A model generated the notes under the pieces. The model saw only the letters and a program-made list of their open reading frames with translations. It had not been told where the DNA came from and searched no databases. From a virus, in the IMG/VR virus record IMGVR_UViG_3300009702_000003, positions 1 to 46,543 of that record: a stretch of DNA of 46,543 nt; one strand, given 5' to 3'. The position numbers and the translations under genes are program-made. Positions 1 to 46,543 of the stretch are shown here, piece by piece. Every line of letters starts with the position of its first letter. Positions within the stretch are counted from its first letter, which is position 1.

Positions 1-123
1 AGGACTAAACCGTGCTACTGCACTTTCTTTTGACTTCTTTTCCAGCCAACTTCAGCTATATCTGTCATGCTACGCATGACTAAACTGCTGGAAAGTCTGT
101 CCCTTGACAGCTACTAAAAAAGG
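1..123. repeat. Terminal direct repeat, left copy
   Basis: Nt 1..123 (AGGACTAAACCGTGCTACTG...CTACTAAAAAAGG) recur base-for-base as nt 46421..46543. This indicates a complete genome, either with a true DTR or as a circular-assembly overlap. Confidence 0.9.
38..95 (+). repeat. Nested inverted repeats inside the terminal repeat
   Basis: TTTCCAGC (39..46) pairs with GCTGGAAA (87..94) and encloses a perfect GTCATGC-TAC-GCATGAC hairpin (64..80). The same element is present at 46458..46515. Confidence 0.6.
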
Positions 124-1689: not shown

Positions 1690-1707
1690 CACAAGGAGAC
1701 GCAGACA

Positions 1708-2181: not shown

Positions 2182-2198
2182 CTCCGGCTCAGGAAATA

Positions 2199-2243
2199 GG
2201 CCCGTGCTCAGCCAGAAAGACCGGTTGGGCACGGGCCTTTTTC
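2199..2243 (+). terminator. Rho-independent terminator ending the first (G+C-rich) operon
   Basis: GGCCCGTGC (2199..2207) pairs with GCACGGGCC (2229..2237) and is followed by TTTTTCT. It starts 18 nt after the stop at 2181. Confidence 0.75.
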
Positions 2244-2282
2244 TATGCACGCCCACTTTGTATTGCAAAGTAAAAAAATTTT

Positions 2283-2326
2283 CCAGGCTGGCGCCTGGAC
2301 TTTCTTTGACAGGCTTCGCCTGACAG
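2283..2326 (+). promoter_or_regulatory. Two CAGGC..GCCTG hairpins/palindromes in the leader of the second operon
   Basis: The elements are CCAGGC-TGGC-GCCTGG (2283..2298) and TGACAGGC-TTC-GCCTGACAG (2307..2326). The second is a shorter relative of the 22-nt units at 46233..46289. Confidence 0.55.
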
Positions 2327-2333
2327 TGTTTCT

Positions 2334-3535: not shown

Positions 3536-3888
3536 TGAGCACCACAAATACAAAAGAATCCCTGCAACACTGGATCAGAGTAGTACAAGAACTCAACAGA
3601 AACCTAGACAGAATTGAAAAGAGTTGCACCAAGATCCTAAATAACAAACCAGATGATCCAGAAATCAACCTACTAGTTTACTACATCAAAAGTCTGGGAA
3701 GATCAGCAGTAATTGGAGACATCACAGCTGCATGTGCACTCCACCAACTCAGTACAGAACAAGAAGACACATACGGCTCAGAGCACACCTTTGTACCCAC
3801 TGAACTGAAAGACATTATGGAGTACCTGGAAGAAGAATACAAGGATCTGGACACTATTAATACTATACTTAACGAATTTGGAGACTAA
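3535..3888 (+). CDS. Hypothetical acidic protein (117 aa)
   Basis: The ATG at 3535 shares its A with the upstream TAA. The upstream part of ORF 3439..3888 overlaps the previous gene. Confidence 0.65.
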   Translation: MSTTNTKESLQHWIRVVQELNRNLDRIEKSCTKILNNKPDDPEINLLVYYIKSLGRSAVIGDITAACALHQLSTEQEDTYGSEHTFVPTELKDIMEYLEEEYKDLDTINTILNEFGD

Positions 3889-3898
3889 GTAAACAAAC

Positions 3899-4378
3899 AT
3901 GTCCAAAGAAGACAAGGACCTGGAAAGCAAGAACCCATTCCTTAAAAAAGAGGTTAGCTTAACCGACATCACAGAACTTTATTACCAACATGTAGCCCTA
4001 CCAATAAAGCATCTAGAAGACACTGGGAAACACAAATCTATCATAGGTCAACTTAAAGAAACTCAAGAGATCTACAAGAACTTTGCAGAAGTATTAGGAA
4101 TCCCAGTACCAACTCAAGAATTACAAGATGCATTAGTATTTGACTGGGACCTAAACCAAACAGAAGAGGACCTTCTAAAACTAGAAGTAAAGCAAGGAGT
4201 ATATCTTTTCTTTGTCCTACAAACTCTTTTCAAGGGCATCCTAATGTTTAGTAACAGAGCTATGCAAACTGGTCTTAAACTGTACATCCAGAAGGAGCTA
4301 TTCTCACAAAAGAGAGTAGAACTAAGAAATGGTAAAGAACAAGACATGCCTGAAGAAGAGAAAGAAACAATTCACTAA
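3899..4378 (+). CDS. Hypothetical protein (159 aa)
   Basis: ORF with a short intergenic gap. It has one hydrophobic segment (VYLFFVLQTLFKGILMF). No family recognised. Confidence 0.7.
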   Translation: MSKEDKDLESKNPFLKKEVSLTDITELYYQHVALPIKHLEDTGKHKSIIGQLKETQEIYKNFAEVLGIPVPTQELQDALVFDWDLNQTEEDLLKLEVKQGVYLFFVLQTLFKGILMFSNRAMQTGLKLYIQKELFSQKRVELRNGKEQDMPEEEKETIH

Positions 4379-4393
4379 GACTAGGAACAGACT

Positions 4394-5767
4394 ATGCCTG
4401 TAAAGCTAATACAGCTTAATAAGAAAGAAACAAAAGAGGAGCCAGCAAAGTATACTCTTGACCAATCAAGCACAACTATGGGGTCTTCAAACAGTACAAG
4501 TAAAATAAAGACAGCAAAGAAAATTGAGGCACCAGCATTCAAAGCAAAGTATGATGGACATTGCATAAAAAAGGACTGCAGATTAGGTGGTAAAATAAAA
4601 CCCGGAGATGATATCACTTGGGTTAGAAGAGGACCACACAAGGGTGGGTACTACCATAAGAAATGTGCAGACTTACCTTTTGAAGACAAAGAGGACAACC
4701 AGGAAAAAGAAGAAAAGGAAAAGAAGAATACACAAGCAAAGAAAAAGTCAGCTAAGAAAACACAGCCTAACATAGCTAAAGAAGAAATACAGGAGCTAGT
4801 TCAAGATCAGACTGACCCCTTAAATGAAAAGCTAAAGAACCTTAGTAAGCAACTAGAGTCACTGCAGAATAAGCTAGGCAAGGCTATGCAGGTTACCAGG
4901 ACTCTAGAAATTTCCAACCAAGCTGACAAGCAAGTAAAACAGTTTAAGGAACTGCACCACTTCCAGTTTCCACAACTGCTTAAACTAATCAGCTTGGGAT
5001 TTCAGGTATACATCTGGGGTGGGCCTGGAAGTGGCAAGACTACCGCTGCAATGCAAGTAGCAAAGGTTAGAAAGCAACCCTTTGGCCTACTTAGCCTCAA
5101 CCCTATGTCACCTGCCAGTAAACTAGAGGGGTATGGTACTGCAGATGGGACATACATTCCAAGTATTGCCTACAAGATGTATTCTAGTGAAGGCAAGGGT
5201 GGTCTACTTTGCATAGATGAGTTTGATAATGCAAATGGTGCCTTGCTTACTAGCTTCAATTCAGCCTTAGCAAATGGGGTGGGATCCTGGCCTCTAGGGA
5301 TCATTACAGAACAACATAAAGACTTTGCTCTAGTAACTACAGGAAATACACCTGGCTTTGGGGGAACACCTGCACATCCAGACAGACGCAAGCTAGATAG
5401 TGCTACCAGAGACCGCTTTGTAGTCTTGGACTGGGAATATGACAAGGATCTGGAAAGAGCATTAGCTTTGCAAGAGTGTGAAGAAGCAGAGCCTTGGATT
5501 ACATGGTGCCAGACCACAAGAAAGTGGGCAGAAGAGAATGCACCTAGAGTCATGGTAACTCCAAGATCCTGTATATTCGGAGCAAGGCTACTCAAGAACA
5601 CAGACTTGCCCATGAATGAGATCTATAAACTAACTGTAGCTAGAGGAATCACAGAAGACTACAGAACTAAGACCCTAAAGAACTGTCCATTACCAAAGCT
5701 ACAGGGTCTTGGTAAGCCAACAGAAACAAGAACAGAACTGGTACCTCAAGAAAAGACTAAGCCATGA
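4394..5767 (+). CDS. AAA+ ATPase, AAA_5 (MoxR/CobS-like) with Lys/Glu-rich N-terminal region
   Basis: Walker A is YIWGGPGSGKTTAA and Walker B is GLLCIDEFDNA. The downstream blocks FALVTTGNTP and SATRDRFVVL follow the AAA_5 order. The N-terminal region carries an H-C-x4-C...H-x2-C cluster. Confidence 0.8.
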   Translation: MPVKLIQLNKKETKEEPAKYTLDQSSTTMGSSNSTSKIKTAKKIEAPAFKAKYDGHCIKKDCRLGGKIKPGDDITWVRRGPHKGGYYHKKCADLPFEDKEDNQEKEEKEKKNTQAKKKSAKKTQPNIAKEEIQELVQDQTDPLNEKLKNLSKQLESLQNKLGKAMQVTRTLEISNQADKQVKQFKELHHFQFPQLLKLISLGFQVYIWGGPGSGKTTAAMQVAKVRKQPFGLLSLNPMSPASKLEGYGTADGTYIPSIAYKMYSSEGKGGLLCIDEFDNANGALLTSFNSALANGVGSWPLGIITEQHKDFALVTTGNTPGFGGTPAHPDRRKLDSATRDRFVVLDWEYDKDLERALALQECEEAEPWITWCQTTRKWAEENAPRVMVTPRSCIFGARLLKNTDLPMNEIYKLTVARGITEDYRTKTLKNCPLPKLQGLGKPTETRTELVPQEKTKP

Positions 5768-6732
5768 TCTTAGAAAAAGAACCAGGACACTACAAACAAA
5801 TGTTCCAAACATGGGGAGAATACGTAGAATATGCAAAACAAGCCAAGGCAACGCAATGGGACAAAAGTAACATAATTGAAACAAAGAAACGACATAGTAG
5901 AAGAAAACGTGATGGAAGTACATTTAAACATACTACAGAAGTCTTAGCTATACAAGGGTGGCCAGAAGGAAGCAAGTATGCAGATGTATATGGGTCCTGG
6001 CTGTTTGACAAATGCTCTAGTATCATAGAAAGAGAAGACTACTTCTTTGAAGTAACAGGTGCTGATATAGACATGGCAGCATACACAACAGGCATTCCAG
6101 AGTGTTTCATAGAACAAAGAATGACATGTGTAGAAGAAGAAGGACAGAAGATCTTCCACCTAATCTTTGGAAATGGAGCTACTTCAGGAGTTAGTACCCA
6201 GATGGTAGCAAAAAGAGGAGCAGTTGTAGTAGCATTAATACAGTTACTAGAGTATGCAGGATACAGCATGGTTGTAGATCTCATGTCTAGTACACGTAAC
6301 TTTAAACAAGACAGACAAGACTACTCACAAGGAGACAATAATCCACTCTGGTTACCTAGAGGTACTAAACTACATTCCTCTGATAGGCATCACACAGGCT
6401 GGCACCCACATGTAGAAACCTGGGTTCCATTAAAAAGAGCTGGGGAACCTATAGACACAGACAGACTACTCTTTGCCCTAGCCCACAGAGGTAGCTTTGC
6501 ACAAATAGCCTTTGCAATCTGGGAAGCACTGCCACAATGGCTTGGGAAAGAATGTCGCTTTGGTGTTAATACAAATTGTGGAGCACCAATAAAAGTTAAA
6601 GAATGGTCAACTAGAGGAGACTTAAACTTCCCAGAAGCTACACACTTTGACTCTACCTGGAAGTCAGACGAAGATGCCATTAAATGGATTCTAGACCACT
6701 TAAAGAGAGCAGGACTTAAAGTCCGTGCATAA
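5764..6732 (+). CDS. Partner of the AAA+ ATPase, possibly a vWA-like fold with a degenerate MIDAS
   Basis: An ATGA overlap links it to the AAA+ gene. The segment IFHLIFGNGATSGVSTQMVAKRGAVVVALIQLLEYAGYSMVV resembles vWA beta1-MIDAS loop-alpha1-beta2, but DxSxS is replaced by GNGATS. The fold call is weak. Confidence 0.45.
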   Translation: MILEKEPGHYKQMFQTWGEYVEYAKQAKATQWDKSNIIETKKRHSRRKRDGSTFKHTTEVLAIQGWPEGSKYADVYGSWLFDKCSSIIEREDYFFEVTGADIDMAAYTTGIPECFIEQRMTCVEEEGQKIFHLIFGNGATSGVSTQMVAKRGAVVVALIQLLEYAGYSMVVDLMSSTRNFKQDRQDYSQGDNNPLWLPRGTKLHSSDRHHTGWHPHVETWVPLKRAGEPIDTDRLLFALAHRGSFAQIAFAIWEALPQWLGKECRFGVNTNCGAPIKVKEWSTRGDLNFPEATHFDSTWKSDEDAIKWILDHLKRAGLKVRA

Positions 6733-6795
6733 CCTCGGATAAGTTAGAAAGAAATACTGTAACTATCCGGTATAATCTAAGAAAGGATCTAATAC

Positions 6796-7206
6796 ATGAT
6801 TTCAGAAATTAATGTTCCACAAACCTTGCATGGTATTGCAAGAACACTACACCTGAACAACCCCCTAGTTGCTATGTCAAAGAAGGCTTTGCAGAAGAGG
6901 TCAAAGTACTGGCAACATGTGGCAGAAGAGGTATGTAGACGAGACTTTGACACTACCAAGCTTCTGTACAAAACTAGAAGGAAGTTAAGAGCTGTCAGAA
7001 AGGCACAACGAGACCTGCAGCAAGCATATCTAAGAAATGATAGACTCCTTAGAAAGCTAAGGGGAGACCTAGAAATTGAAAGAATGAGAACCGAGGACTT
7101 AAGAGACAGGCTAGACACTGCAATGGCAGAAGCAGACTACTATGCAGACGCACACCAATATAGATACAAGGACAACGCAGAGAAGGTTACTAATGCCCAA
7201 AATTAA
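6796..7206 (+). CDS. Hypothetical basic coiled-coil protein
   Basis: AAGGA is upstream. The sequence has Arg/Lys-rich heptad-like stretches (RKLRAVRKAQRDLQQAYLRNDRLLRKLRGDLEIERMR). Confidence 0.7.
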   Translation: MISEINVPQTLHGIARTLHLNNPLVAMSKKALQKRSKYWQHVAEEVCRRDFDTTKLLYKTRRKLRAVRKAQRDLQQAYLRNDRLLRKLRGDLEIERMRTEDLRDRLDTAMAEADYYADAHQYRYKDNAEKVTNAQN

Positions 7207-7363
7207 GCTACTAAAACATTTAACAGATGGCATAGCTTTCATGATAGTAATACCTCTCTTTGTTCTAGCAGGTCTTTTAGAAATAAGCTACAAAATCTTC
7301 CAGTCCTTGTTCTTAACAGTACTGTTTCTTACTAGATTTGTCAGACAAATCTTTAGGACTTGA
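7193..7363 (+). CDS. Small membrane protein (56 aa)
   Basis: The ATG at 7193 overlaps the end of the upstream gene by 14 nt. There are two hydrophobic segments (IAFMIVIPLFVLAGLL, IFQSLFLTVLFL). Confidence 0.45.
   Translation: MPKIKLLKHLTDGIAFMIVIPLFVLAGLLEISYKIFQSLFLTVLFLTRFVRQIFRT
7334..7352. repeat. Perfect 19-bp palindrome AGATTTGTC-A-GACAAATCT
   Basis: Seen directly. It lies at the 3-prime end of the small membrane ORF and is followed by TTT. It could be a weak terminator or a protein-binding site. Confidence 0.4.
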
Positions 7364-7384
7364 TAGAAACCTGCAAAGAGCTGC

Positions 7385-7403
7385 CTGACAGGAACTGACA
7401 GGA
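7385..7403 (+). promoter_or_regulatory. Tandem CTGACAGGA direct repeats (10-bp register) upstream of the Zn-ribbon/HTH gene
   Basis: CTGACAGGA occurs at 7385..7393 and again at 7395..7403, ending 14 nt before the ATG at 7417. The same TGACAGGA 8-mer also occurs at 17275, 45388 and 45442. Confidence 0.55.
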
Positions 7404-7416
7404 GTGTGTTACTACT

Positions 7417-7785
7417 ATGCCTATACCTACCAGCCCCCACACCCATGTCCTATACTGTGAGATATGCAAGGCACCTGCAAAAAAGCCAAAGGATTGCATA
7501 TCATATGTCTGTGGGTTATGCAATCTAAAGAAACATATCCTTGCAACAGAAAGTGAGGAAAAGTACTATAACCCAGAACTAGTAAGGAAACTCATTCAAG
7601 AATATGGTGGCATTACACACATTGCTGCCAAGCTAAGACTATCCGCCTCAAGTATCTACTCCTACCTGAAAGGAAAAACAAAATGCCCATCAGTTCTGTT
7701 TACCTGGGTAAAGGAACTCCACCCAAGGAGTATCAAGATCTTACCAAAGCAATTGAAGACCTTGAAAAGACCTGGACAGACCTAG
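7417..7785 (+). CDS. Zinc-ribbon plus helix-turn-helix protein (putative transcription regulator)
   Basis: A Cys4 motif (CEIC...C-x2-C) is followed by an HTH-like segment, GGITHIAAKLRLSASSIYSYLKG. The last 103 nt overlap the next ORF. Confidence 0.55.
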   Translation: MPIPTSPHTHVLYCEICKAPAKKPKDCISYVCGLCNLKKHILATESEEKYYNPELVRKLIQEYGGITHIAAKLRLSASSIYSYLKGKTKCPSVLFTWVKELHPRSIKILPKQLKTLKRPGQT

Positions 7786-8015
7786 ATCATAAGGAATCCC
7801 TTGATGCTGCAGCAGACCTACTAGGTTTAGCTCTAAGTCTGGATGTATCTATCAGACTTACTTTTCATGACAAAGATACAGAGATTACCATTGACCCAGA
7901 AAAGAATAACTTTACTTGTGAAGACACCTTTACAGGAGAACAGTATGTCCTGCCTATTACTCACATACTAAAAGAAGCTTTGAACCCCAAAGTAAAACCC
8001 GAAGTAGAGGAATAA
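7683..8015 (+). CDS. Hypothetical acidic protein (110 aa)
   Basis: AAGGA lies 8 nt upstream of the ATG at 7683. Composition is protein-like and acidic. Confidence 0.65.
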   Translation: MPISSVYLGKGTPPKEYQDLTKAIEDLEKTWTDLDHKESLDAAADLLGLALSLDVSIRLTFHDKDTEITIDPEKNNFTCEDTFTGEQYVLPITHILKEALNPKVKPEVEE

Positions 8016-10126: not shown

Positions 10127-10324
10127 ATGCAGACCTTAAGTGAAAAGATAGAAAATGCAATTGGTAACACACTTTTCAATGCAGATCTAGAAAGAGCACC
10201 GATTGCTTACCTATCTAAAGTCCTAACTCAAACCGTACTAGAGGTCATACGTAATGAACTCAGCAGCTATAACCCCACCAGTAGAACAGTGCAAGGAATG
10301 CACAAAAAGACAGGAACAGTATAA
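10127..10324 (+). CDS. Hypothetical small protein (65 aa)
   Basis: The start lies 2 nt after the upstream stop. The 3-prime 71 nt overlap the polymerase ORF. Confidence 0.45.
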   Translation: MQTLSEKIENAIGNTLFNADLERAPIAYLSKVLTQTVLEVIRNELSSYNPTSRTVQGMHKKTGTV

Positions 10325-12845
10325 CTACAAATATGTCTACGGTGAAAATTTAAAGCTTAAAAGGACATTCCTGTTTGTTGGAGAAGCACCTGGGAGGGTA
10401 GAAAATGAACAGGGCAAAGTCTTTGTTGGTAAGTCAGGACAACTATTGCGAGATTCACTTGCAAACCTAAACTTTCCAAAGAATCAATGTGCTTTTACTA
10501 ATGCAGTACACGTTAGACCAGATGAGTACAACTCAACCCCAAGCTTTTCCTGGGGCCAGGATTGCCTAAACATCTGTAAACCTAAGCTACTAGATATTGT
10601 AGACCCAGCTCTTATCATTTGTTTGGGTAATACAGCCTGGAAACAATTCACACGAAATAGCTCTGCATCTGTCTTTAAAGACAGGCGCAGAGTTTTGTCT
10701 TACAAGCATACTTATGCCCCAGATTCAGCAGGTAGAGTATACACAAGAGAAATACCAATTGTCTGCACTTGGCATCCTGCCTACATTCTAAGAATGGAAG
10801 GAAGAGAAAAAGAGTGGTGGGAAGCAGACTTAGATTCTTACGTCTTAGGAGAATGGGACAGAAGGGAATTAGTACCTAACCTAACTGTTAGAAAGATCTT
10901 TCCAAAAGAGTTGAACAAATCTACTTACTTCTGCTTGGACGTAGAAACAACAGGACTACACCCGTGGCGAGGAGATACCCTACGATGTGTTGGTATTACA
11001 GGTAATCCTACGTACCACACCAATGAATCACAGAGAGTGTATGTAATTAAAGATGAGAAAGGCTTTGCAGCTATACAAAGGAAAGTCTACAAGAAACCAA
11101 AAGACCCTGGTGAGATTTTATACATAGAAGGAGCTAATACACATTTTGACCTAATGTGGTTTCTAAAGCCAGGTAAATTTCCTTACTGCAGAACAAGAGA
11201 CATTCAGTTCAAGCACTATCTAGTTGATGAGGAGTATCCTATCAGGAGATTAGACCACTTAGCATTACTGTACACACCATACAAAGAGTGGAAGCTTCCT
11301 GAACATGGTGCAAATGAAACAAACCTTGCAAAACTATACGAGTACAACGCCAGAGATGTTCTACAAACACAACTAATTAGCAAGGAAATAGGGGCACAAG
11401 AGACAATAGATATTGCACAAGCAGAACCAGTAAGTAAGGTCATGGAAAGAGTACAGCCAATCCTAGCTGCTATGACCAGAACAGTAATTATGGTAGATCC
11501 TGCAGAATTACAGGGAGTAGATGAAGCTTGCAAAGAAATTATAGCAACCAAGCTATGGTCTCTTAATCTAATTCACTTAAACTATGCTACAATTACTACA
11601 AAGACTAATGCAGGTGGAACATTTTCTGGAATAGCACCAGGCAAGATTACTGAAAAATGCCTGAACACACCTACCAGAGTAAGCAAGATCATCTTCCAAG
11701 ATTTGTATGCAATACCTCCAGAAGGTAACCAGTACCTAATGAAGTCAGGTTTACCTAGAACTGATACCAAAACATTACGAGCTACAAACGATACAACAGG
11801 CTTTGTTATTGAGCTAGAAAAGTACAAGAGGGAAAGAGACAACTACAGGAAATATGTAACGAACCTGTATGATTACATTGACCAAGACCCAGATTGGGGA
11901 GAACAATTATCAGATGATCCTGTCTGGACTATGCACCCAACTGTAAACATTGCAAGTGGTTGGACTAGTAGATCTAAGTCTAAAACAGGAGGAACTACAT
12001 CATCGAGGTTCAGTTACAAAAACCCACCACTGCATAACATCCCAAGAGGACACCCAATCAGACGAATATTCATCCCGCACAAACAAGCAGGACATAGATA
12101 TCTTGCTCAAACAGATATGAAACAAGCAGAGCTAAGATGCCTTGCACAGGAGAGCAAAGACCCCCAGTTAATTGAAGCAATCAAAATTCATGAAGACTTA
12201 CACTTATCTCTGGCTGATAAACTACAAGAACAGGGAATACACTTAGGAACAGATCCAAGAAATGTTGCAAAGACAATCAACTTTGCAATCTTGTATGGTG
12301 TAAGCGCAAAGGGTTTAGCAGACCAAACACCTTTGTCAGTAGATGAGGCAAAGCTAGCAATTAAGTTGTGGTTTGAGAGATTCAAACGAGTTAAGTTCTT
12401 GTGGTATAAAACACGACAGGATATACTTAACCGAGGTTACGTCCAGACTAGTTTTGGACTAAAGAGAAGATTCAGAACAGGACTTAACAAGTTTGATCCA
12501 ATTCTATTCAAGTCACAAAGACAGGGATTTAATCACCTGTTCCAATCTGCTGCTCACCAAATCAATCTTCTAATCCTCTTAGCAATACAAGATGCTACTA
12601 ATAACTTTAAGCACCACTGGCCACTAGGTCTGATTCATGATGCTATTCTCTTCTCAACACCAGATGCAGAAGATTTGAAAGGTAGGATACAGCTTGCTTA
12701 TGATATCCTAGGAGAGAATTACCTACCTGACTTCTTTGGACAGGACATGATAATACCTATTGAGGGTGACTACAAATCAGGCCCTAATTGGTATGACATG
12801 GCAGGAGATAAAACTACATTTACAACCAAGAGTGTGACAAAGTAG
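10254..12845 (+). CDS. polA: Family A DNA polymerase with 3-5 exonuclease and an N-terminal family-4 UDG-like domain
   Basis: UDG domain: CKEC, GEAPGRVENEQGKVFVGKSGQLL and WHPAYILR. Exonuclease: FCLDVETTGL, NTHFDLMW and YNARDV. Polymerase: DMKQAELRCLA (motif A), RNVAKTINFAILYG (motif B) and LIHDAILF (motif C). Confidence 0.93.
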   Translation: MNSAAITPPVEQCKECTKRQEQYNYKYVYGENLKLKRTFLFVGEAPGRVENEQGKVFVGKSGQLLRDSLANLNFPKNQCAFTNAVHVRPDEYNSTPSFSWGQDCLNICKPKLLDIVDPALIICLGNTAWKQFTRNSSASVFKDRRRVLSYKHTYAPDSAGRVYTREIPIVCTWHPAYILRMEGREKEWWEADLDSYVLGEWDRRELVPNLTVRKIFPKELNKSTYFCLDVETTGLHPWRGDTLRCVGITGNPTYHTNESQRVYVIKDEKGFAAIQRKVYKKPKDPGEILYIEGANTHFDLMWFLKPGKFPYCRTRDIQFKHYLVDEEYPIRRLDHLALLYTPYKEWKLPEHGANETNLAKLYEYNARDVLQTQLISKEIGAQETIDIAQAEPVSKVMERVQPILAAMTRTVIMVDPAELQGVDEACKEIIATKLWSLNLIHLNYATITTKTNAGGTFSGIAPGKITEKCLNTPTRVSKIIFQDLYAIPPEGNQYLMKSGLPRTDTKTLRATNDTTGFVIELEKYKRERDNYRKYVTNLYDYIDQDPDWGEQLSDDPVWTMHPTVNIASGWTSRSKSKTGGTTSSRFSYKNPPLHNIPRGHPIRRIFIPHKQAGHRYLAQTDMKQAELRCLAQESKDPQLIEAIKIHEDLHLSLADKLQEQGIHLGTDPRNVAKTINFAILYGVSAKGLADQTPLSVDEAKLAIKLWFERFKRVKFLWYKTRQDILNRGYVQTSFGLKRRFRTGLNKFDPILFKSQRQGFNHLFQSAAHQINLLILLAIQDATNNFKHHWPLGLIHDAILFSTPDAEDLKGRIQLAYDILGENYLPDFFGQDMIIPIEGDYKSGPNWYDMAGDKTTFTTKSVTK

Positions 12846-12846
12846 C

Positions 12847-13677
12847 ATGGAGATCCAAACCTTACTCAAGAAGCTCCACTGGACTGAAAACTCAGAGCCT
12901 AAACCTGTGTGGGGTGGAATCAAAACTCCTTGGCATATGCTAACTCAAGTCCTATATGGGGGGTTCAAGCCACACTTGATACTAGTTGCAGGTAGGCCAG
13001 GAATGGGCAAGAGCAGCTTCATAAAGCAGCTTGTAGCGCACATGGCCTTGGACCAGGACCTATCAGTAGCATGGTTCAGTTTGAAATCCCCAGCAGTGGA
13101 GGGATTAGCCAGGATAAATGCAGAAAGAATGTGTGACAAGTGTGCAGAGAAGAACAAATGGTGCAACCAAGTCAGGCAACACTTAGAACAAGCGAAGCTC
13201 TATATCTCAGAAGGAGCACAGCAAAACGTAGCAGAGATGTTTGGGGGCATGGATGAGGCTGGATTTAAACCAGATATAATCTTCATAGATCACTTAGAAT
13301 GGATCCGGCTGCCAGCAGAACAGAAGTACTCTGCAAACAAGTCAGACCTTATTGGTATTGTAACAAAGCAATTAGTAGCAGAAGCTAAAGAAAGGAATAT
13401 ACCTATTGTCTTAGCAGTACAGCTTAACAGAGACTGTGAGAAACAACTGCCTTGGTCAGGACATGCAAGACCAAACCTGTCTCACTTGAGAGACAGTGGT
13501 AACTTGGAACAAGATGCACAAGAAATACTGTTTCTATACAGACATGAAGTGTACGAACCAAACTCTAAGCACTACAAGGGTAAGGCAGAAATCATAGTAG
13601 CAAAGCATAGGAACGGACCAGTAGGAACTGTACCCCTAACTTGGGAAGGAGAATACTATGGATTCTATGATGACTAA
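12847..13677 (+). CDS. DnaB-family replicative helicase, RecA-like C-terminal domain only
   Basis: The blocks are GRPGMGKSSF (H1), IIFIDHLEWI (H2), AVQLNRDCE (H3), RPNLSHLRDSGNLEQDAQEILFLYR (H4) and AKHRNGPVGTV. At 276 aa it lacks the N-terminal primase-interaction domain. Confidence 0.9.
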   Translation: MEIQTLLKKLHWTENSEPKPVWGGIKTPWHMLTQVLYGGFKPHLILVAGRPGMGKSSFIKQLVAHMALDQDLSVAWFSLKSPAVEGLARINAERMCDKCAEKNKWCNQVRQHLEQAKLYISEGAQQNVAEMFGGMDEAGFKPDIIFIDHLEWIRLPAEQKYSANKSDLIGIVTKQLVAEAKERNIPIVLAVQLNRDCEKQLPWSGHARPNLSHLRDSGNLEQDAQEILFLYRHEVYEPNSKHYKGKAEIIVAKHRNGPVGTVPLTWEGEYYGFYDD

Positions 13678-13954
13678 TACTGAAAGGCAACAAGAGTTTT
13701 ATGACCAGACCCTGTACCATCTAGCCAGGAGAATTTGCTTCGAACGAATCATGCTTGATTGGACACAAGAAGACCTTGCTAAGCATGCAGGTGTGTCACC
13801 AAATACAGTAACTAATCTGGAAAGGGGAAGTGCTGTTTCCTTGGAAGTACTTTGCAAGATATGCCTAGCACTAGGCTTAGGCGTAGAGGTAGCTTTCAAG
13901 GATGTATCACAAGCAAAACTAGATCGTTACAAGAACTTCAAGGAGGATAACTAA
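13658..13954 (+). CDS. XRE-family helix-turn-helix regulator
   Basis: LDWTQEDLAKHAGVSPNTVTNLERG is a classic HTH_3/XRE signature. The start overlaps the helicase gene by 20 nt, and alternative in-frame ATGs lie a few codons downstream. Confidence 0.8.
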   Translation: MDSMMTNTERQQEFYDQTLYHLARRICFERIMLDWTQEDLAKHAGVSPNTVTNLERGSAVSLEVLCKICLALGLGVEVAFKDVSQAKLDRYKNFKEDN

Positions 13955-15820: not shown

Positions 15821-16165
15821 ATGACAACTGATAGGGAAAGAGCATGGGAGGAATTTCATACTATTGTCTGTCCAATAAATGAAAGCATTGCAGGCAACTA
15901 TACAGACCAAAATGATCTATCAGTTTGGATTACTAAGCCTCTAACGCCAGTAGAAATAGATAAGAAAATCCTAGCTGCAGCTCAGAGAGCATTTGATTAC
16001 TACTACCCAAAGATTGCTAAACGCAATGCACAGATCGAAGAACGCGATGCCGAGATCCGCAGTCTGAAACAACCAAGGATCAAGATGATAAATAGCTATG
16101 AGTCAGACCTGCACAAACGTGATGCTATCATTGCTACTTTAAAGAAACTAAGGGTGAAGTCATGA
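15821..16165 (+). CDS. Hypothetical coiled-coil protein (114 aa)
   Basis: The ORF has a C-terminal heptad-like region (NAQIEERDAEIRSLK...). It ends in an ATGA overlap with the next gene. Confidence 0.65.
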   Translation: MTTDRERAWEEFHTIVCPINESIAGNYTDQNDLSVWITKPLTPVEIDKKILAAAQRAFDYYYPKIAKRNAQIEERDAEIRSLKQPRIKMINSYESDLHKRDAIIATLKKLRVKS

Positions 16166-17178
16166 GATTTAGAAAGAAACCAATTGTGATAGAAGCTATT
16201 CAGTGGACCGGTGGAAACTGGTCCGAGATAGACGGATTCACTCAAGGCTGGGCCAGGTTGTGTGTCAACAACGGGCTTGTTATTGACACGATCGGAGGCT
16301 CCCTCCACGTAGCCCCTGGAGACTGGATCGTTCGTGGGGTCGTTGGAGAGTTCTATCCGTGCAGTCCCGACATCTTCGATGCGACCTATGAACCTTGTGG
16401 CGGACCTGGAGGTGTAATCGTGAGTGAGCCCATTCTCGGCCATGGGGTAAACGATGGCGGTGAGTTCTACGAAGTAACCGAAGGCGACCAGGGTGGTCAG
16501 GGGGCAAGGCATTTGGACGACCCTGGTCAAGGAGCGGGCAGCGAGCCCCCGGCTGCCCCGCCTTCGGTTGAGTTGACCTCGGCCGGCGAGCGTCCAACCC
16601 TGGTTATTGCCGAGGACGACCTGAGCGTTAGCGCCTCGGACCACCTAGAGCTAGAGGCCAAGCTGCGGGAGACCGAAGCGGCTCTAGACACCATGACCTC
16701 GGAACGCAACGTGTGGCGAGAGTCACACGATGAAGCCTGCCCTAACCTGGGCGAGACAATCGACCTACGCGAGACGTTGGCCGAGCGTGATGCCGAGATT
16801 GAACGACTGCTGAAGGTGGAGAAGATCAAGCTCCAGCAACAGGCGCCGCAACGAGGGGTTCGCCACGGCGCTCAAAAGGCTGTCTGTGGACCCGGCGTGT
16901 CAAGCCGAGATCAACAGGCTAGAAGCCAAGATCGAGCGCCTACAGCACGATCTGGAGGAACAATGAATGCAGTAGTAGGTCGAGCAGTCACTTGCCGTGT
17001 TTGCGGGCTTAGGAAAAAGCCCTGGGGTCGCTCCGCACCGCTCGCGATGGCGAACAGCCTGTGCGACCGGGAGTGTCCGGGGTGGTTACTGCCTCCGCAT
17101 GCAGGAGACCTTTGGCCCGGCGAGACCGCCGAGGAATTTGGCTACCCCTGTGCTGGACCAGACTGCGAAGCAAACTAA
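16162..17178 (+). CDS. Composite G+C-rich ORF: small conserved phage N-domain, acidic/coiled-coil region, and an apparently frameshift-fused Cys-rich C-terminus
   Basis: The N-terminus (MRFRKKPIVIEAIQW...GDWIVRGVVGEFYPCSPDIFDATYEP) matches a small stand-alone phage protein family as I recall it. From about 16845 the residues look out-of-frame (APQRGVRHGAQKAVCGPGVSSRDQQARSQDRAPTARSGG), while the +1 frame reads a plausible coiled coil ending at the TGA at 16964..16966. Confidence 0.55.
   Translation: MRFRKKPIVIEAIQWTGGNWSEIDGFTQGWARLCVNNGLVIDTIGGSLHVAPGDWIVRGVVGEFYPCSPDIFDATYEPCGGPGGVIVSEPILGHGVNDGGEFYEVTEGDQGGQGARHLDDPGQGAGSEPPAAPPSVELTSAGERPTLVIAEDDLSVSASDHLELEAKLRETEAALDTMTSERNVWRESHDEACPNLGETIDLRETLAERDAEIERLLKVEKIKLQQQAPQRGVRHGAQKAVCGPGVSSRDQQARSQDRAPTARSGGTMNAVVGRAVTCRVCGLRKKPWGRSAPLAMANSLCDRECPGWLLPPHAGDLWPGETAEEFGYPCAGPDCEAN
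16963..17178 (+). CDS. Possible originally separate Cys-rich small gene (71 aa) now in frame with the upstream ORF
   Basis: The ATG at 16963 overlaps the TGA at 16964..16966 of the alternative frame, which is the classic ATGA gene junction. Translation: MNAVVGRAVTCRVCGLRKKPW...CDRECPGW...YPCAGPDCEAN. Confidence 0.4.
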   Translation: MNAVVGRAVTCRVCGLRKKPWGRSAPLAMANSLCDRECPGWLLPPHAGDLWPGETAEEFGYPCAGPDCEAN

Positions 17179-17227: not shown

Positions 17228-17256
17228 TTGACAAACCTAACAAGATATGCTACACT
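17228..17256 (+). promoter_or_regulatory. Sigma70-type promoter TTGACA-N17-TACACT with a TGC extended -10
   Basis: TTGACA is at 17228..17233 and TACACT at 17251..17256, with TGC directly upstream of the -10. It lies in the 293-nt gap after 17178. Confidence 0.6.
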
Positions 17257-17257
17257 A

Positions 17258-17288
17258 GTCCAATCCTGTTAAGGTGACAGGATTGGAC
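17258..17288. promoter_or_regulatory. Perfect 12-bp inverted repeat overlapping the predicted start site (operator-like)
   Basis: GTCCAATCCTGT-TAAGGTG-ACAGGATTGGAC. It begins 2 nt after the -10 hexamer and contains the TGACAGGA 8-mer (17275..17282). Confidence 0.6.
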
Positions 17289-17450
17289 CTCATATATTGG
17301 GCGTAAATATTGACAACGAGTTTCCTGGTATAGCCTTTTCAGTATTAGTGAACAGTTTGTACACTGTGTTGATCTAGTACTTTGAGAGGCTATACCAGGC
17401 CGGGGGCATTTGGGGGAGAGCAACTGTCATGGTTGCTCTCCTCTTTTATT
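17263..17450 (+). ncRNA. Candidate structured leader (attenuator/riboswitch-like) or about 185-nt sRNA
   Basis: A promoter at 17228..17256 and an intrinsic terminator at 17415..17450 have no ORF between them. Internal pairings are CCTGGTATAGCC (17324..17335) with GGCTATACCAGG (17388..17399), and ACAGT (17352..17356) with ACTGT (17363..17367). Confidence 0.3.
17415..17450 (+). terminator. Rho-independent terminator 22 nt upstream of the deaminase start codon
   Basis: GGAGAGCAAC (17415..17424) pairs with GTTGCTCTCC (17432..17441) across a 7-nt loop, followed by TCTTTTATT. Confidence 0.7.
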
Positions 17451-19994: not shown

Positions 19995-20067
19995 CGGCCC
20001 GTAGCTCAATAGGTTAGAGCCCTGTTCTTATAAAGCAGAGACTCCGGTTCAAATCCGGACGGGCCTA
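19995..20067 (+). tRNA. tRNA-Ile: tRNA with anticodon UAU (Ile, reads AUA)
   Basis: A cloverleaf was folded by hand: acceptor CGGCCCG/CGGGCCT, U8, D-arm GCTC-AATAGGTTA-GAGC (A14, G18G19), anticodon arm CTGTT-CTTATAA-AGCAG (U33, TAT, A37) and T-arm TCCGG-TTCAAAT-CCGGA. The discriminator is A, followed by CC. Position 1-72 is a C-U mismatch. Confidence 0.85.
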
Positions 20068-34898: not shown

Positions 34899-35394
34899 GA
34901 TTCTTAATCCTTTCCCTAAGCCTGTCTATTCTTCTTTTTAGTTTCTTGACCTGTTTAAGAATAAACTGCAAAACACTGTCATCTGCATCTCTACCTGGTT
35001 CTCCCATAGGACCTGTAGGCCCCTGCAATCCCATAGGACCTGGAGCACCACTAATACCGGGTATAACTATGTGCATTTGACCATCTTCAGGATAGGCCCA
35101 GAAGATTAGATCCTTGTCACTAAAGTCCTTGCCATACCCTGAACTAGTGGCAGCAGCAAATACCTTTACTTCTATCCCATTGCCTAGATCTCTGACAAGT
35201 GCAAGAGCAGCTTCTAGTTGGCCACCATTTCCTGAATCTATGTTAAATGAGATTGCACCAAGTACCTCACCAGGCTGGCCCACAAGGCGAACCTTAGCCG
35301 GGTCAGTAATTTTAGACCCTATTGTAACCTCGTTCTGTCTATCTGGATGTGCTGCCTCGATCCACATATCAGGTGTGTCAAATCGTTCAGTCAT
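34879..35394 (-). CDS. Structural protein with a short collagen-like triple-helix segment
   Basis: There are eight consecutive G-X-Y triplets (GISGAPGPMGLQGPTGPMGEPGRD), then a basic helical tail (KKLKRRIDRLRERIK). Confidence 0.6.
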   Translation of the reverse strand: MTERFDTPDMWIEAAHPDRQNEVTIGSKITDPAKVRLVGQPGEVLGAISFNIDSGNGGQLEAALALVRDLGNGIEVKVFAAATSSGYGKDFSDKDLIFWAYPEDGQMHIVIPGISGAPGPMGLQGPTGPMGEPGRDADDSVLQFILKQVKKLKRRIDRLRERIKNHAAKHR

Positions 35395-35449
35395 TAGAGG
35401 ACACCAGTTTCTTGAACTTTCTTAGGGTAAGAGGCAACAGCGCTAATCA

Positions 35450-36643
35450 CTATGCCACCTTCCACCCGTAGATGGTCACGACGCCGGAGGAGATCGTGCC
35501 CGATGACACGACGAGCACGACGCTTGTGAGCGGCCCCGTTACAGACGTTGCCCGGCCAACAATCGAGCCTCCCTTGGGGTCTAGCGTCGTGGCCTCGATG
35601 TATGTTCCAAATCCCCTGGTCATGAAGTTGGTCTGATTCTCAAGCCACAGTGTCCACGCGCCACCCTCTACGTTCGATCCCATGTTCGATGCAAGCTCGA
35701 TGTAGGTGCCCGCGTTGGATGCCGAGCCCTGATACGTGGCTGTGGACGAGTCGTTGTCGCCGTGGTGGTAGTGGTAGTTATTATTGGAGGAGCCGTTGTA
35801 TTGGATGCCTACGGCAACGCCGTTCGTCCCAACCTTGAGCTTCTCGATCAGCACGACCAGCGTGTCGTATCCAGTAGTCGTTACGTTCAGGGTCGTGCCG
35901 GGCGTGGTCGTGGTTGCGATCTGCTTCAAGACACCGCTACCACCGAGTAGGGTCTCTACTCCCGCGCTGTCGAGCAGGGCAAGTTTCGTCGTGCCGGCGT
36001 CATCCTTGGCGTACACACGCCCTACGTTCACCCCAGGATTTGCGGGTGTCGCGATCTCGTCCAGGTCGTAGTAGCTGCTCTTGAGCACATTCTCCGGAGA
36101 GACGAACTCGTAGCCTGTTACTCCGCTGTTGAGTCGAACAAGCTGCAACCCGGTGCCCACAGGGAGCCTCCCGAACTGGGAAGCCCCAGAGGCATAGACA
36201 AAATCAAGTGCTGCCTGGGATGCAATAGCTATCCCACCTGACTCTACAGCAGCTATTCTAGCATCTACAGTAGCAGAAGAACCAGAAGGACTAATACCTA
36301 GTTCTGACTCTATGTTAGCAACTTCTTGTACTAGCTGATCTTGTACCTTACCTGTTGGCACTGCTACAACATTGTCTCCATCATTATGTGCTGCAGCAGT
36401 ACCTGCCCAACCTCTAGTACAACCTGTAAAGGTAGTGCTTGTAGTACCCGTGTAGTATATCTGTTCACCACCAATGACAATAGTTCCATTAGTACTTGCA
36501 AAACCTGTGGTTGAGGCAACAGTTATGGTAGTTACAACAGAGGTATGTGCACCTGTTAGGGTTGTTCTCTGGTCTATTCCATCCCCCACTCTTGGTAGGT
36601 CTGCATCAGTTACCAGAGCTGTTGGGTATTTAACAGTAGCCAT
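35450..36643 (-). CDS. Tail fibre/spike protein with a compositionally foreign C-terminal domain
   Basis: The N-terminal block IVIGGEQIYYTG...FTGCTRGWAGTAAAHNDGDNV is a common fibre/spike anchor motif. G+C jumps at about 36200, and the C-terminal part (about 250 aa) is G+C-rich. Confidence 0.65.
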   Translation of the reverse strand: MATVKYPTALVTDADLPRVGDGIDQRTTLTGAHTSVVTTITVASTTGFASTNGTIVIGGEQIYYTGTTSTTFTGCTRGWAGTAAAHNDGDNVVAVPTGKVQDQLVQEVANIESELGISPSGSSATVDARIAAVESGGIAIASQAALDFVYASGASQFGRLPVGTGLQLVRLNSGVTGYEFVSPENVLKSSYYDLDEIATPANPGVNVGRVYAKDDAGTTKLALLDSAGVETLLGGSGVLKQIATTTTPGTTLNVTTTGYDTLVVLIEKLKVGTNGVAVGIQYNGSSNNNYHYHHGDNDSSTATYQGSASNAGTYIELASNMGSNVEGGAWTLWLENQTNFMTRGFGTYIEATTLDPKGGSIVGRATSVTGPLTSVVLVVSSGTISSGVVTIYGWKVA

Positions 36644-45153: not shown

Positions 45154-45192
45154 TACCAGACTTTCCCTATGCTAAGCTACCAAATCTTAGTG

Positions 45193-45221
45193 AGTATTGC
45201 ACACTTTAGATAGTTTGTCAA
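45193..45221 (-). promoter_or_regulatory. Proximal late promoter candidate TTGACA-N17-AATACT (TGC before the -10)
   Basis: The minus strand reads TTGACAAACTATCTAAAGTGTGCAATACT. The -35 is at 45221..45216 and the -10 at 45198..45193, about 35 nt upstream of the terS-like ATG. Confidence 0.45.
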
Positions 45222-45416
45222 GTCCTTACCACAAGTTCTTGTGGGTGCATTGTCCTGGTGTGGACCTATAAATGGGTGTATATGACAGTAACAGAACAGG
45301 TATTGTTTTAGAATAGTCTTAATAAGATCTGTTATGACCCAATAGCAAGGTCTTGCATGTCTGGCAATGCCTTTGTTCGGGGGGTTATGACAGGATAATG
45401 CATTAGCATAGTGCCA

Positions 45417-45456
45417 GGACATGTACATGTCCAGTACTGCTTGACAGGACCTGTCA
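45417..45456. promoter_or_regulatory. Two perfect palindromes just downstream of the distal late promoter (operator-like)
   Basis: TGACAGG-A-CCTGTCA (45442..45456) starts 3 nt downstream of the -10 of the minus-strand promoter. GGACATGTACATGTCC (45417..45432) follows. A further TGACAGGA lies at 45388..45395. Confidence 0.55.
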
Positions 45457-45459
45457 GGT

Positions 45460-45488
45460 GTTATAGCACATTTTGTAATAGTTGTCAA
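45460..45488 (-). promoter_or_regulatory. Distal late promoter TTGACA-N17-TATAAC with a TGC extended -10
   Basis: The minus strand reads TTGACAACTATTACAAAATGTGCTATAAC. The -35 is at 45488..45483 and the -10 at 45465..45460. This is the best sigma70 match in the window. Confidence 0.6.
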
Positions 45489-45553
45489 GTCTATGGCCCC
45501 TAACTAAAGGGGGAGGTCTGTAATAGCTTAGTAGAGGCCCTGCAGTCTAGTTT

Positions 45554-45782
45554 TAGTTCTAAAAATTCTAAAATAATGAGGGGGAAAACGCCTAGAATAA
45601 TAACTGTATTCTATAAATTCTTAGAAATAGGGGCAATTAAAGGGCAATTAAAGGGGGTAATAACTGCCTATGACAATACTTTACCAAAATGTTAGTAATA
45701 AGTCCAATAATACCAAGTATTTAGAGTTCTAAAAATTCTAAAGAATTACTAACATTTGCAGGTATTGTTTAAAATTCTAAAG
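45554..45782. repeat. AT-rich iteron-like repeats (TTCTAAA units)
   Basis: AGTTCTAAAAATTCTAAA occurs at 45555..45572 and again at 45725..45742. AAAATTCTAAAG also occurs at 45771..45782. TTCTAAA heptamers start at 45558, 45567, 45728, 45737 and 45775. Confidence 0.7.
45598..45666. repeat. TAATAACTG repeats flanking a tandem GGGCAATTAAA duplication
   Basis: TAATAACTG is at 45598..45606 and 45658..45666. GGGCAATTAAA is at 45631..45641 and 45642..45652, followed by GGGGG. Confidence 0.7.
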
Positions 45783-45885
45783 TAGTTATTACTTACTAAA
45801 AATTTATAGAACTACTGAGTATTTGGTTTGACAGTATTATCTTACTTTTAGGATTTACTTGGTAAAGCCAAACTGGTGCTAAAAC

Positions 45886-45915
45886 TTGAGTGGGTATGCA
45901 TGTGCTATCTATAAA
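45886..45915 (+). promoter_or_regulatory. Candidate rightward (early) promoter TTGAGT-N18-TATAAA
   Basis: TTGAGT is at 45886..45891 and TATAAA at 45910..45915. An AT-rich block lies upstream. It faces the G+C-rich leader and the early genes. Confidence 0.35.
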
Positions 45916-46232
45916 CTGGGAGGAGAAGAAGGCCGTGCTGGGTCCCACGACAGGGGGCTACCCCCCGGCATGCTCTGTCAGGAACAGCATTGCAACCCCC
46001 TGCCTCTGCCTAAAACATGCCACAGGGCAGCACAGTCCACCTTTGCCAGGGAGGCAAAGCTTGACAGTGCTCAGGAACACCCGACGTGCTTGGACTTGCA
46101 AATAGCCGGGACATTGTGTGTGGATATGTACCTTAGCAGAACCAGGTAATACTCTCAGTGCCCACGAGACACGTCCAAGCACTTGAACTGCTAACATTTC
46201 ACCCTAGCCAAGGAGTACCTGTAACATCAAGC

Positions 46233-46289
46233 GGACAGGCGAAGCGCCTGACAGCACAGTCCCATAGGGACAGGTGAAGCACCTGACAG
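46233..46289 (+). repeat. Two 22-nt hairpin units, GGACAGG(C/T)GAAGC(G/A)CCTGACAG
   Basis: The units are at 46233..46254 and 46268..46289. They differ only at two positions, which are the partners of one stem base pair (C46240:G46246 versus T46275:A46281). Confidence 0.8.
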
Positions 46290-46383
46290 TATTGTGTCAG
46301 CACCCCGACTCTCTCACAGCCTAAAGTAGCTGTAAAGGGCAAGCTGTAAAACAACTCAAAACAAAGTGCTCAAACTAGCCTCT

Positions 46384-46415
46384 AGGGCATTGGTCCCAGG
46401 TTGAGCCAATGCCCT
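46384..46415 (+). repeat. 10-bp stem hairpin ending 5 nt before the terminal repeat
   Basis: AGGGCATTGG (46384..46393) pairs with CCAATGCCCT (46406..46415) across a 12-nt loop. Confidence 0.6.
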
Positions 46416-46420
46416 GTCCA

Positions 46421-46543
46421 AGGACTAAACCGTGCTACTGCACTTTCTTTTGACTTCTTTTCCAGCCAACTTCAGCTATATCTGTCATGCTACGCATGAC
46501 TAAACTGCTGGAAAGTCTGTCCCTTGACAGCTACTAAAAAAGG
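46421..46543. repeat. Terminal direct repeat, right copy
   Basis: Identical to nt 1..123. Confidence 0.9.

Follow-up and report, generated by a model that had tools for sequence, protein, structure and literature searches.

Three copies of one short stem-loop lie in the control DNA of this uncultured phage, all on the + strand and co-oriented with the genes downstream, and they share a constant hairpin base and an unpaired 3' tail beneath a variable top. We tentatively read these units as sequence-specific RNA stem-loops in operon leaders that may control the fate of transcripts at t_E1, the strong terminator behind the first gene block. This is the reading that we favor, as a possibility still short of an even chance, and the evidence for it comes from the form of the units, from their positions and from the unusual distribution of promoters in the genome.

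The window, which is the whole stretch of 46,543 nt analyzed here, represents one complete phage genome whose circular map measures 46,420 nt. Bases 1-123 recur at 46421-46543, and this is the repeat to which the original prediction refers. Because a Logan contig (SRR6056608) crosses the end junction uninterrupted with identical sequence, and because a JGI contig with the same terminase measures 46,561 nt, or 46,420 + 141, the repeat is best read as an overlap left by the assembler, a step that we infer; on this ground we rejected a genuine terminal repeat or packaging signal at the ends of the window. Genes on the + strand span ~138 to 20,400 and encode an SSB-like protein, two SLOG-like proteins, an AAA ATPase, a PD-(D/E)XK nuclease, a UDG-PolA fusion, a DnaB-type helicase, a dCMP deaminase, a tRNA-Ile and an HTH_3 regulator with a Cro/CI-type HTH (13658-13954). 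On the - strand, genes extend from 45,153 to 20,571 and encode a terS-like protein, TerL, tail proteins, internal virion proteins and a lysin, together with a portal and an adaptor that match Pfam SU10-phage families. The two divergent arms are ~1.4 kb apart with no credible genes between them (45154-46420 plus 1-137); a 103-aa "ORF" at 45177-45488 begins within a promoter and is probably spurious. A Pfam/PHROG-type family search of the scanned ORFs revealed neither a phage RNA polymerase nor a sigma factor. The 1441-aa virion ORF is without Pfam, PHROG or PDB matches and without homologues, and T7-type and two-barrel catalytic motifs are absent from it and from the other large ORFs. The early ORFs have no Pfam or PHROG match even at E<=5, and the 171-aa early protein adjoining the units is an orphan without homologues. 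Two basic ORFs, at 138-302 and 936-1223, are likewise without detectable homology, and the smaller, at 138-302, may be only an effect of A/C-rich composition.

The two 22-mers at the heart of the original prediction, GGACAGGCGAAGCGCCTGACAG and GGACAGGTGAAGCACCTGACAG, are present and differ at two positions only, unit positions 8 and 14. These are stem partners, paired as C:G in unit 1 and as T:A in unit 2. The units form an adjacent pair 35 bp apart, their common motif has two matches in the window and none in 100 shuffles, and an independent Logan assembly carries the identical sequence for both. Each unit alone is predicted to fold as CAGG(C/T)G-AAG-C(G/A)CCTG, so that the hairpins are real as predicted folds, in the form of a 6-bp stem and AAG triloop in place of the 5-bp stem and GAAGC loop first proposed. 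For the isolated units 1 and 2, the folding energies are -9.0 and -7.5 kcal/mol as RNA and -6.6 and -5.1 kcal/mol as DNA. Past the stem of unit 1 come an A·A mismatch and then one more G-C pair, with the ACAG tail left unpaired. Within the + strand RNA context, unit 1 is predicted to form with p~0.98 and unit 2 only with p~0.1-0.2, because hairpins B and D (Table 1) compete with the latter.

Table 1. Units, neighboring hairpins, promoters, terminators and other features of the window.
Feature	Sequence or form	Position	Strand	Remarks
Unit 1	GGACAGGCGAAGCGCCTGACAG	46233..46254	+	stem 46236-46241/46245-46250, AAG loop
Unit 2	GGACAGGTGAAGCACCTGACAG	46268..46289	+	unit 1 with the C:G pair changed to T:A
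Unit 3	TTGACAGGC-TTC-GCCTGACAG	2306..2326	+	covariance model 29.2 bits, E 4e-6
Hairpin B	GTCCC-ATA-GGGAC	46259..46271	+	overlaps 5' edge of unit 2
Hairpin D	CTGACA-GTATTG-TGTCAG	46283..46300	+	overlaps 3' arm and tail of unit 2, competes
Long imperfect hairpin	210 nt; 15-bp, 27-bp and 10-12-bp helices	46325..46535	+	-79.8 kcal/mol, z -6.6
t_E1, strong intrinsic terminator	16-bp GC-rich stem, then UUUUUCU	2198..2246	+	-37.7 kcal/mol, z -7.3
Hairpin before unit 3	TCCAGGC-TGGC-GCCTGGA	2282..2299	.	A run before, T run after; just before unit 3
P1(-)	TTGACA-17-TGcTATAAC	45460..45488	-	11/12 match; terS/TerL/portal operon
Candidate promoter	TTGAGT-18-TATAAA	45886..45915	+	9/12 match; at the switch to GC-rich, T-poor composition; weak candidate
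Palindrome, late leader	TGACAGG-A-CCTGTCA	45442..45456	.	~+1 to +15 of P1(-); overlaps + strand TTGACA
Palindrome, late leader	GGACATGTACATGTCC	45417..45432	.	second in late leader
Palindrome near position 1	GTCATGC-TAC-GCATGAC	64..80 (also 46484-46500)	.	weak relative of the units, covariance model E~2
Copy of 1-123		46421..46543	.	assembly overlap of circular map

The shorter relative TGACAGGC-TTC-GCCTGACAG at 2307-2326 lies behind the terminator of the first operon, as had been predicted, and so does the hairpin CCAGGC-TGGC-GCCTGG at 2283-2298. This third unit has the basal stem, A·A mismatch and ACAG tail of units 1 and 2, is 1 bp shorter, carries a TTC loop and is followed by TGTTTCTTTT, which starts 4 nt past the stem. 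A covariance model of the three units recovers only those three above noise in 46.5 kb (41.8, 39.1 and 29.2 bits); the next matches are units 1 and 2 on the opposite strand, at <=14 bits. Constant in all three are the G-C pair, the A·A mismatch, the CAGG/CCTG pairs and the unpaired 3' ACAG tail. Variation is found in the hairpin top, which shows a swapped pair, the loss of a pair from both arms and two kinds of loop, AAG and TTC, so that the distance from CAGG to CCTG is 7, 7 and 5 nt in units 1, 2 and 3. Unit 3, ~2.5 kb away, retains 16 of 20 nt, the mismatch and the unpaired tail among them. The flanks outside the 22 nt are unrelated between units 1 and 2, and conservation is thus confined to the 22-nt unit. 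The description of the pair as a duplicated unit therefore stands as to the two copies and fails as to a simple tandem duplication. Units 1 and 2 are not intrinsic terminators, being followed by CACAGTCC and TATTGTGT, and terminator scans flagged none of the three units; unit 3, with TGTTTCTTTT behind its stem, is marginal.

Is the stem under selection? All seven stem pairs are standard in all three units wherever both sides have letters, and one pair changes on both sides in a compensatory manner (n=3 sequences). The chance that two random substitutions in a 22-mer hit one of the 7 pairs and restore pairing is ~0.01-0.03, and the symmetric loss of 1 bp in unit 3 adds a second change that leaves pairing intact. 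The argument for selection made in the original prediction is sound in that the double difference keeps the pairing. It is weakened in that it involves one pair in three sequences, in that the structure-pair count on the three units is not significant (179 of 500 shuffles reach the observed values), and in that template switching offers an alternative. Judged from the sequences, selection on the stem is suggestive and statistically thin. Since the pairs are all Watson-Crick, with no G-U, RNA and DNA are indistinguishable from the units themselves.

The surroundings of the units change abruptly in composition. The segment 45489-45900 is AT-rich and holds four TTCTAAAAATTCTAAA-like 20-mers and a tandem GGGCAATTAAA. 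At ~45920, composition shifts to 53-56% GC with a T-poor + strand and stays so through five orphan ORFs to 2250; the strand skews in this leader have the same sign as those in the + strand genes. The GC-rich leader contains 11 short perfect hairpins against 2.4 expected, and GACAG is its most over-represented 5-mer (7 vs 1.0 expected). Likeness between the first and second leaders beyond the unit extends to short words only. Two other candidate signals were rejected: a CsrA sponge, with 12 GGA motifs observed against 8.4 expected (P=0.14), and TGACAGGA as a genome-wide motif, with an enrichment no greater than that of many other 8-mers. A strong terminator had been placed at 46384-46415; this proves to be the apex of the 210-nt imperfect hairpin at the end of the leader, it lacks a U tract, and the scan for terminators did not pick it up. 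The first five-ORF block ends instead at t_E1, behind which follow, in order, the 2282-2299 hairpin, which looks like a bidirectional terminator, unit 3 and TGTTTCTTTT.

Promoters are distributed in an equally distinctive way. Convincing sigma-70 promoters are found at 45488(-), 45221(-), 8024(+) and 17228(+), with CTTGACAA and a TGn extended -10 in common, and no near-consensus sigma-70 promoter is found upstream of the genes from 138 to 8015. Five + strand TTGACAG sites (104, 2306, 45441, 45828 and 46061) were tried as -35 elements and rejected, having no usable -10 at 16-18 nt. One weak candidate lies at 45441(+), where the spacer is 15 nt long and a TGn motif is present, and another at 45886 (Table 1). 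The placement of the units in an early leader, as originally claimed, is thus unproven: units 1 and 2 lie upstream of t_E1, with no convincing, near-consensus + strand sigma-70 promoter found upstream of them, and unit 3 lies downstream of it. Strand composition and the two weak candidates suggest that units 1 and 2 may be transcribed.

Relatives of this phage are few and distant. A search of 5.8 billion proteins gave a best TerL homologue with 53% identity; cultured phages fall below 30%. Nothing was found with TerL peptide patterns in IMG/VR or with a TerL alignment search of GTDB genomes, and the region had no blastn match among 50,697 phage records. Scans for the unit motif returned no match in IMG/VR, 7 single-copy matches in unrelated contexts in JGI metagenomes (most without the complementary pair and one beside a Nextera adaptor) and 8 single-copy matches in unrelated taxa in GTDB genomes, counts that by our own estimate are about those expected by chance. 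Every match in these collections being single copy, a host or mobile repeat family (REP-like, CRISPR), which would have many copies in a genome or array, was set aside. Rfam yielded nothing at gathering scores or at E<=10. The contigs of three relatives (L003, L006 and L007) have the divergent layout and a 0.9-1.4 kb gap in common, and they carry iterons of their own at the same map position. Between their non-coding DNA and that of this phage no alignment is possible, and the units are absent from the former; a block noticed by eye as common to L006, GGGTCCCAC..GGGGG, is not above shuffles. In L003, an early promoter, TTGACA-17-TACAAT, lies ~120 nt upstream of the first early gene.

How might the units act? 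According to the RNA stem-loop reading, the three would be copies of one cis-acting element that is recognized as a single strand of + orientation. That strand would most likely be RNA, within the long untranslated leaders that precede the first two + strand gene blocks. The recognized part would be the hairpin base, comprising the G-C pair, the A·A mismatch, CAGG/CCTG and the 3' ACAG tail, and the top would need only to pair. A phage or host factor would bind this base on the nascent transcript and set the fate of that transcript. The likeliest effect would be read-through by RNA polymerase of t_E1 and of the two weaker hairpin-plus-T-run sites behind it, and processing or stabilization of the transcript would be an alternative outcome. 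Read-through would turn on genes 2553-8015, because these have no sigma-70 promoter of their own, and the host polymerase would have to be steered, because no phage RNA polymerase was found. Transcription of the region, binding of a factor and read-through are three steps that we infer.

Several properties of the units argue for this reading. A variable top, a constant base and tail, a single orientation and a varied half-site spacing together fit a folded single strand better than a rigid duplex dimer. The same conclusion follows from unit 3, which is shortened and has a new loop, keeps the tail and the mismatch, and changes the 7, 7 spacing of the other units to 5. The positions before the first two + strand blocks and around t_E1, in a stretch of 8 kb with no consensus promoter, point to the control of transcripts. 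Against it stand the weakness of the + strand promoter candidates (a 15-nt spacer at 45441, a 9/12 match at 45886) and the equilibrium RNA folding, in which unit 2 is outcompeted by the neighboring hairpins. The non-significant covariation counts against it as well, and so does the place of unit 3, which follows the terminators instead of preceding them. An early promoter just before the first gene, as in L003, could leave units 1 and 2 upstream of it. No unit-binding protein was identified, the early ORFs being orphans in family and homologue searches.

The original prediction likened the units to lambdoid boxB elements. They resemble a lambdoid nut site in being small GC-rich stem-loops in an early-operon leader upstream of a strong terminator, and their loop, like the GAAGA loop of lambda nutL boxB, begins with GAAG. 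A long hairpin also separates units 1 and 2 from the first ORF here, an arrangement like that of the lambda N leader. They differ in that two tandem copies are present rather than one, and in that the third has a UUC loop and comes after the terminators, a position that suits a start-of-unit signal better than a nut-like one. Moreover, boxB conserves its loop, whereas the units conserve the stem base and the tail. Lambda N requires a GNRNA pentaloop, which adopts a GNRA-tetraloop-like fold, and a U-A closing pair (PMC12027372). The loop GAAGC is not GNRNA, its G-C pair leaves an AAG triloop, and unit 3 has UUC; read as a pentaloop, unit 2 closes with U-A and units 1 and 3 with C-G. No boxA (CGCTCTTA / YGCTCTTTAACA) occurs on the + strand in 46150-46330 or 2250-2340 at <=1/8 mismatches; allowing <=3/12 mismatches adds a single nearby match, CTTTCTTTGACA at 2300-2311, with an overall count at chance level. 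Nor was an N-family arginine-rich antiterminator found among the early ORFs (Pfam, PHROG, E<=5). The likeness to boxB is therefore not borne out, and the units may work like a nut site but outside that family. That they belong to a novel antitermination or transcript-control system, present in uncultured podophages with SU10-type virion proteins and served by a factor unrelated to lambda N, is quite improbable as a specific proposal. In such a system, recognition would proceed through the base, the A·A mismatch and the ACAG tail, and the host polymerase would pass t_E1 into the promoterless replication genes.

Stem-loops between genes are familiar from other lytic phages, as the RNase III sites of the T7 early leader and the promoter-stem-loop cassettes of T4-type phages illustrate. 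The units share with these that they are short, conserved, early intergenic hairpins co-oriented with transcription. They differ in being, at 22 nt, too short for RNase III, in having no early promoter attached and in numbering three copies only. The units are probably one more instance of the repeated regulatory stem-loops of phage intergenic regions, in a lineage without cultured relatives.

Could the units be recognized as duplex DNA instead? Together with the other G(A/T)CA(G/T)G inverted repeats of the genome, they might be operators for a phage regulator, such as the HTH_3 protein, which would shut the late promoter and block or tune transcription of the + strand. We consider this rather unlikely. 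The units are palindromic and of operator size, and two of them are neighbors at a distance of 35 bp; the phage encodes a Cro/CI-type HTH protein, and the strong sigma-70 promoter before the structural genes needs some repression. Two related palindromes do lie at that promoter, together at ~+1 to +36 of P1(-). The claim that the late palindrome uses the same arms as the units is right for the GACAGG half and for the CAGG/CCTG core, but the late palindrome is a true inverted repeat and the units read GACAGG...CCTGAC, with the A·A mismatch. A looser set, G(A/T)CA(G/T)G-N1-9-C(A/C)TG(A/T)C, has 8 members in the genome against 0.44 expected, of which 6, the three units included, fall in control DNA (3.8% of the genome); because the pattern was defined after most members had been seen, these figures are indicative only. 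Besides the units, those six comprise the two late palindromes and the palindrome near position 1 (64-80), which reads GTCATGC-GTA-GCATGAC-AG on the - strand. What argues against operators is the spacing of the half-sites, which at 1, 2, 5, 5, 7 and 7 nt across the looser set is unsuited to one rigid dimer. A Cro/CI-type site was rejected on the same count, since the units have half-site distances of 7, 7 and 5 nt and the late-promoter palindromes of 1-2 nt, and units 1-3 overlap no identifiable promoter. The units are also asymmetric, with the A·A position and the one-sided ACAG tail kept in one orientation, and a site for a dimer needs no matched changes in both halves.

A second alternative is that the units have no function and represent a small quasipalindrome copied by local duplication or gene conversion, its pairing kept by template switching during replication. 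Quasipalindromes are hotspots of template-switch mutation in which one arm is copied from the other, yielding just such complementary double changes without selection (PMC7202029). The single compensatory pair and its non-significant formal test would be accounted for, the region is generally rich in short palindromes, and conservation beyond this genome cannot be shown. Conservation that ends sharply at the edges of the 22 nt is harder to explain in this way. All three units retain the tail and the A·A mismatch, and template switching would tend to perfect a mismatch. Local copying also accords poorly with a unit 2.5 kb away that keeps 16 of 20 nt, where the proteins adjacent to the copies have at most trace similarity, and with the location of all three in control DNA in one orientation. 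Functionless copies are unlikely in our view.

Single-stranded DNA is a third possibility: the units might be hairpins for replication or packaging, used for priming or initiation beside an AT-rich, iteron-bearing origin or placed near genome ends. The GCGAAGC mini-hairpin has been described at phage origins, at ssiA and at N4 promoters (PMC13037366). As at the d(GCGAAGC) origins of the G4 type and ssiA, the exact heptamer occurs in two of the three units, in unit 1 on the + strand and in unit 3 on the - strand, beside an AT-rich, repeat-bearing segment. The units lie ~350 nt from the four TTCTAAAAATTCTAAA-like repeats, the relatives have iterons of their own at the same map position, and the region is upstream of the terS-like and TerL genes. 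The difference from those origins lies in the heptamer itself, which is not enriched (5 vs ~5.7 expected) and differs in strand between the units, whereas the orientation of the tail is constant. It is out of register in unit 1, where it conflicts with the 6-bp stem backed by the compensatory change. Unit 2 has GTGAAGC and so lacks the wider form GCGNAGC, whose register agrees with the hairpin in unit 3 alone. Neither a primase nor an initiator was identified, and the 123-nt "repeat" at the ends is an assembly overlap. We regard a role as single-stranded DNA as improbable.

Far less credible is that the units are N4-type hairpin promoters, read by an unrecognized virion-delivered RNA polymerase and starting two operons that have no sigma-70 promoters. 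N4 early promoters have a 5-7 bp stem and a 3-nt loop, with a purine at -11 and G at both -10 and -8 of the template (PMC4496689), and the predicted folds, with 5-6 bp and a 3-nt loop, fall within that form. As in N4, a GC-rich heptamer (GCGAAGC here, GCGGAGC in N4) sits within inverted repeats ahead of successive early operons separated by terminators, with units 1 and 2 before operon 1 and unit 3 after two terminators and before operon 2, all co-oriented. By eye, the - (template) strand of unit 3, CAGGC-GAA-GCCTG, supplies G -8, C -9, G -10 and A -11 (PMC4496689), but units 1 and 2 show a CTT loop there and fail these determinants, so that only unit 3 has the required bases. No virion RNA polymerase is detectable, the 1441-aa virion ORF being without matches, homologues or catalytic motifs as described above, and the relative L003 uses a plain sigma-70 early promoter.

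What would an RNA stem-loop of this kind mean for the phage? The layout is unusual, with near-consensus sigma-70 promoters before the structural genes and none before the first 8 kb of the replication arm, and this layout calls for a non-standard switch. The hairpin units are the only repeated, oriented signal at the right places for such a switch. At present this is a well-documented repeat known from one genome, and its value is modest. If the units are a real control signal, they would provide a handle on how gene timing is achieved with the host polymerase alone in a phage that has no cultured relatives and whose closest cultured terminase is <30% identical.

The 123 nt that stand at both termini of the window (1-123 and 46421-46543) are best read as an assembly overlap of the circular map. 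Across this junction, 45920-46420 + 1-2250 form a compositional island, with a GC content of 53-56% versus ~42% elsewhere in the window and a + strand poor in T. Within it lie the leader and a block of five orphan ORFs together with its terminator. The island looks like a module with separate acquisition or separate constraint; two smaller islands rich in GC occur at 16001-17000 and 35001-36000. The long hairpin listed in the table is built of 15-bp, 27-bp, and 10-12-bp helices and ends just ahead of the first ORF's A run and Shine-Dalgarno sequence. Possible roles are RNase III-type processing of the RNA, control of translation, and cruciform formation in the DNA.

Coordinates of features in the window, with strand in brackets where it applies
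Feature	Position	Remarks
Imperfect long hairpin, 210 nt	46325-46535 (= 46325-46420 + 1-115)	-79.8 kcal/mol, z -6.6
Overlapping divergent promoter pair	45440-45489	P1(-) and one + strand candidate
Near-consensus sigma-70 promoters (n = 4)	45488 (-), 45221 (-), 8024 (+), 17228 (+)	
19-nt motif CTTGACA(A/G)CTA(T/C)TA(C/A)AAAA	45471-45489 and 46523-46541 (= 103-121)	Copies mutually inverted
DNA polymerase	10254-12845	UDG-PolA fusion
tRNA-Ile, anticodon TAT	19996-20066	End of the + arm

Repeats occur in the gap between the arms and in the leaders of the first two + strand gene blocks. In the AT-rich half of the gap (45489-45900) there are four 20-mers resembling TTCTAAAAATTCTAAA and a tandem GGGCAATTAAA; this stretch may serve as an origin or as a regulator array. 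Distant relatives with this divergent layout (L003, 7665-8027; L006, 8121-8250) have, at the corresponding place on the map, iterons of their own that are unrelated to these: 11-nt AAATCACC repeats, TATGTACATA repeats, and CCATGGTAATACCA were found in the relatives' gaps. The first leader holds two exact copies of the 11-mer CAGCACAGTCC (46028-46038 and 46252-46262), the second of which adjoins the 3' side of unit 1, the first of the three hairpin-forming repeats; GGGCAGCACAG is seen again in the second leader, at 2435-2445.

Two of the listed ORFs, 138-302 and 45177-45488, are doubtful genes. The former, small and basic, reads like the translation of A/C-rich sequence, which would yield Q, T, H, P, R, and K; the latter, Cys/His-rich and of 103 aa, has its start within P1(-), the promoter of the terS/TerL/portal operon. 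A YAcAr/SLOG protein gene (2553-3131) lies downstream of unit 3, and an orphan 171-aa ORF (346-861) lies downstream of units 1 and 2. Since a single comparison detected a trace of the YAcAr/SLOG motif GAD..LW..W..G.A in the latter (E 0.11), sequence likeness suggests that SLOG-like genes may follow both unit-bearing leaders.

All four near-consensus promoters have CTTGACAA and a TGn extended -10 in common. Two serve the structural-gene arm, and the genes at 138-8015 have none of the four upstream. Each arm has one copy of the 19-nt motif a short way ahead of its first gene. The - strand copy provides P1(-) with its -35 element and spacer; no -10 follows the + strand copy. The transcripts of the two strongest promoters would open with TGACAGG(A)-containing hairpins (17228-17300 and 45417-45456), namely CCAATCCTG-N9-CAGGATTGG after the promoter at 17228 and TGACAGG-T-CCTGTCA after P1(-), which could be 5' stabilisers or operators at +1. 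In the divergent pair, P1(-) (TTGACA-17-TGcTATAAC) and the + strand candidate (TTGACA-15-TGtTATAGC) have the -10 region in common; an inverted CTTGACA...TGTCAAG frames the pair, and the palindrome TGACAGGACCTGTCA overlaps it. The pair could act as a switch that turns on either one arm or the other.
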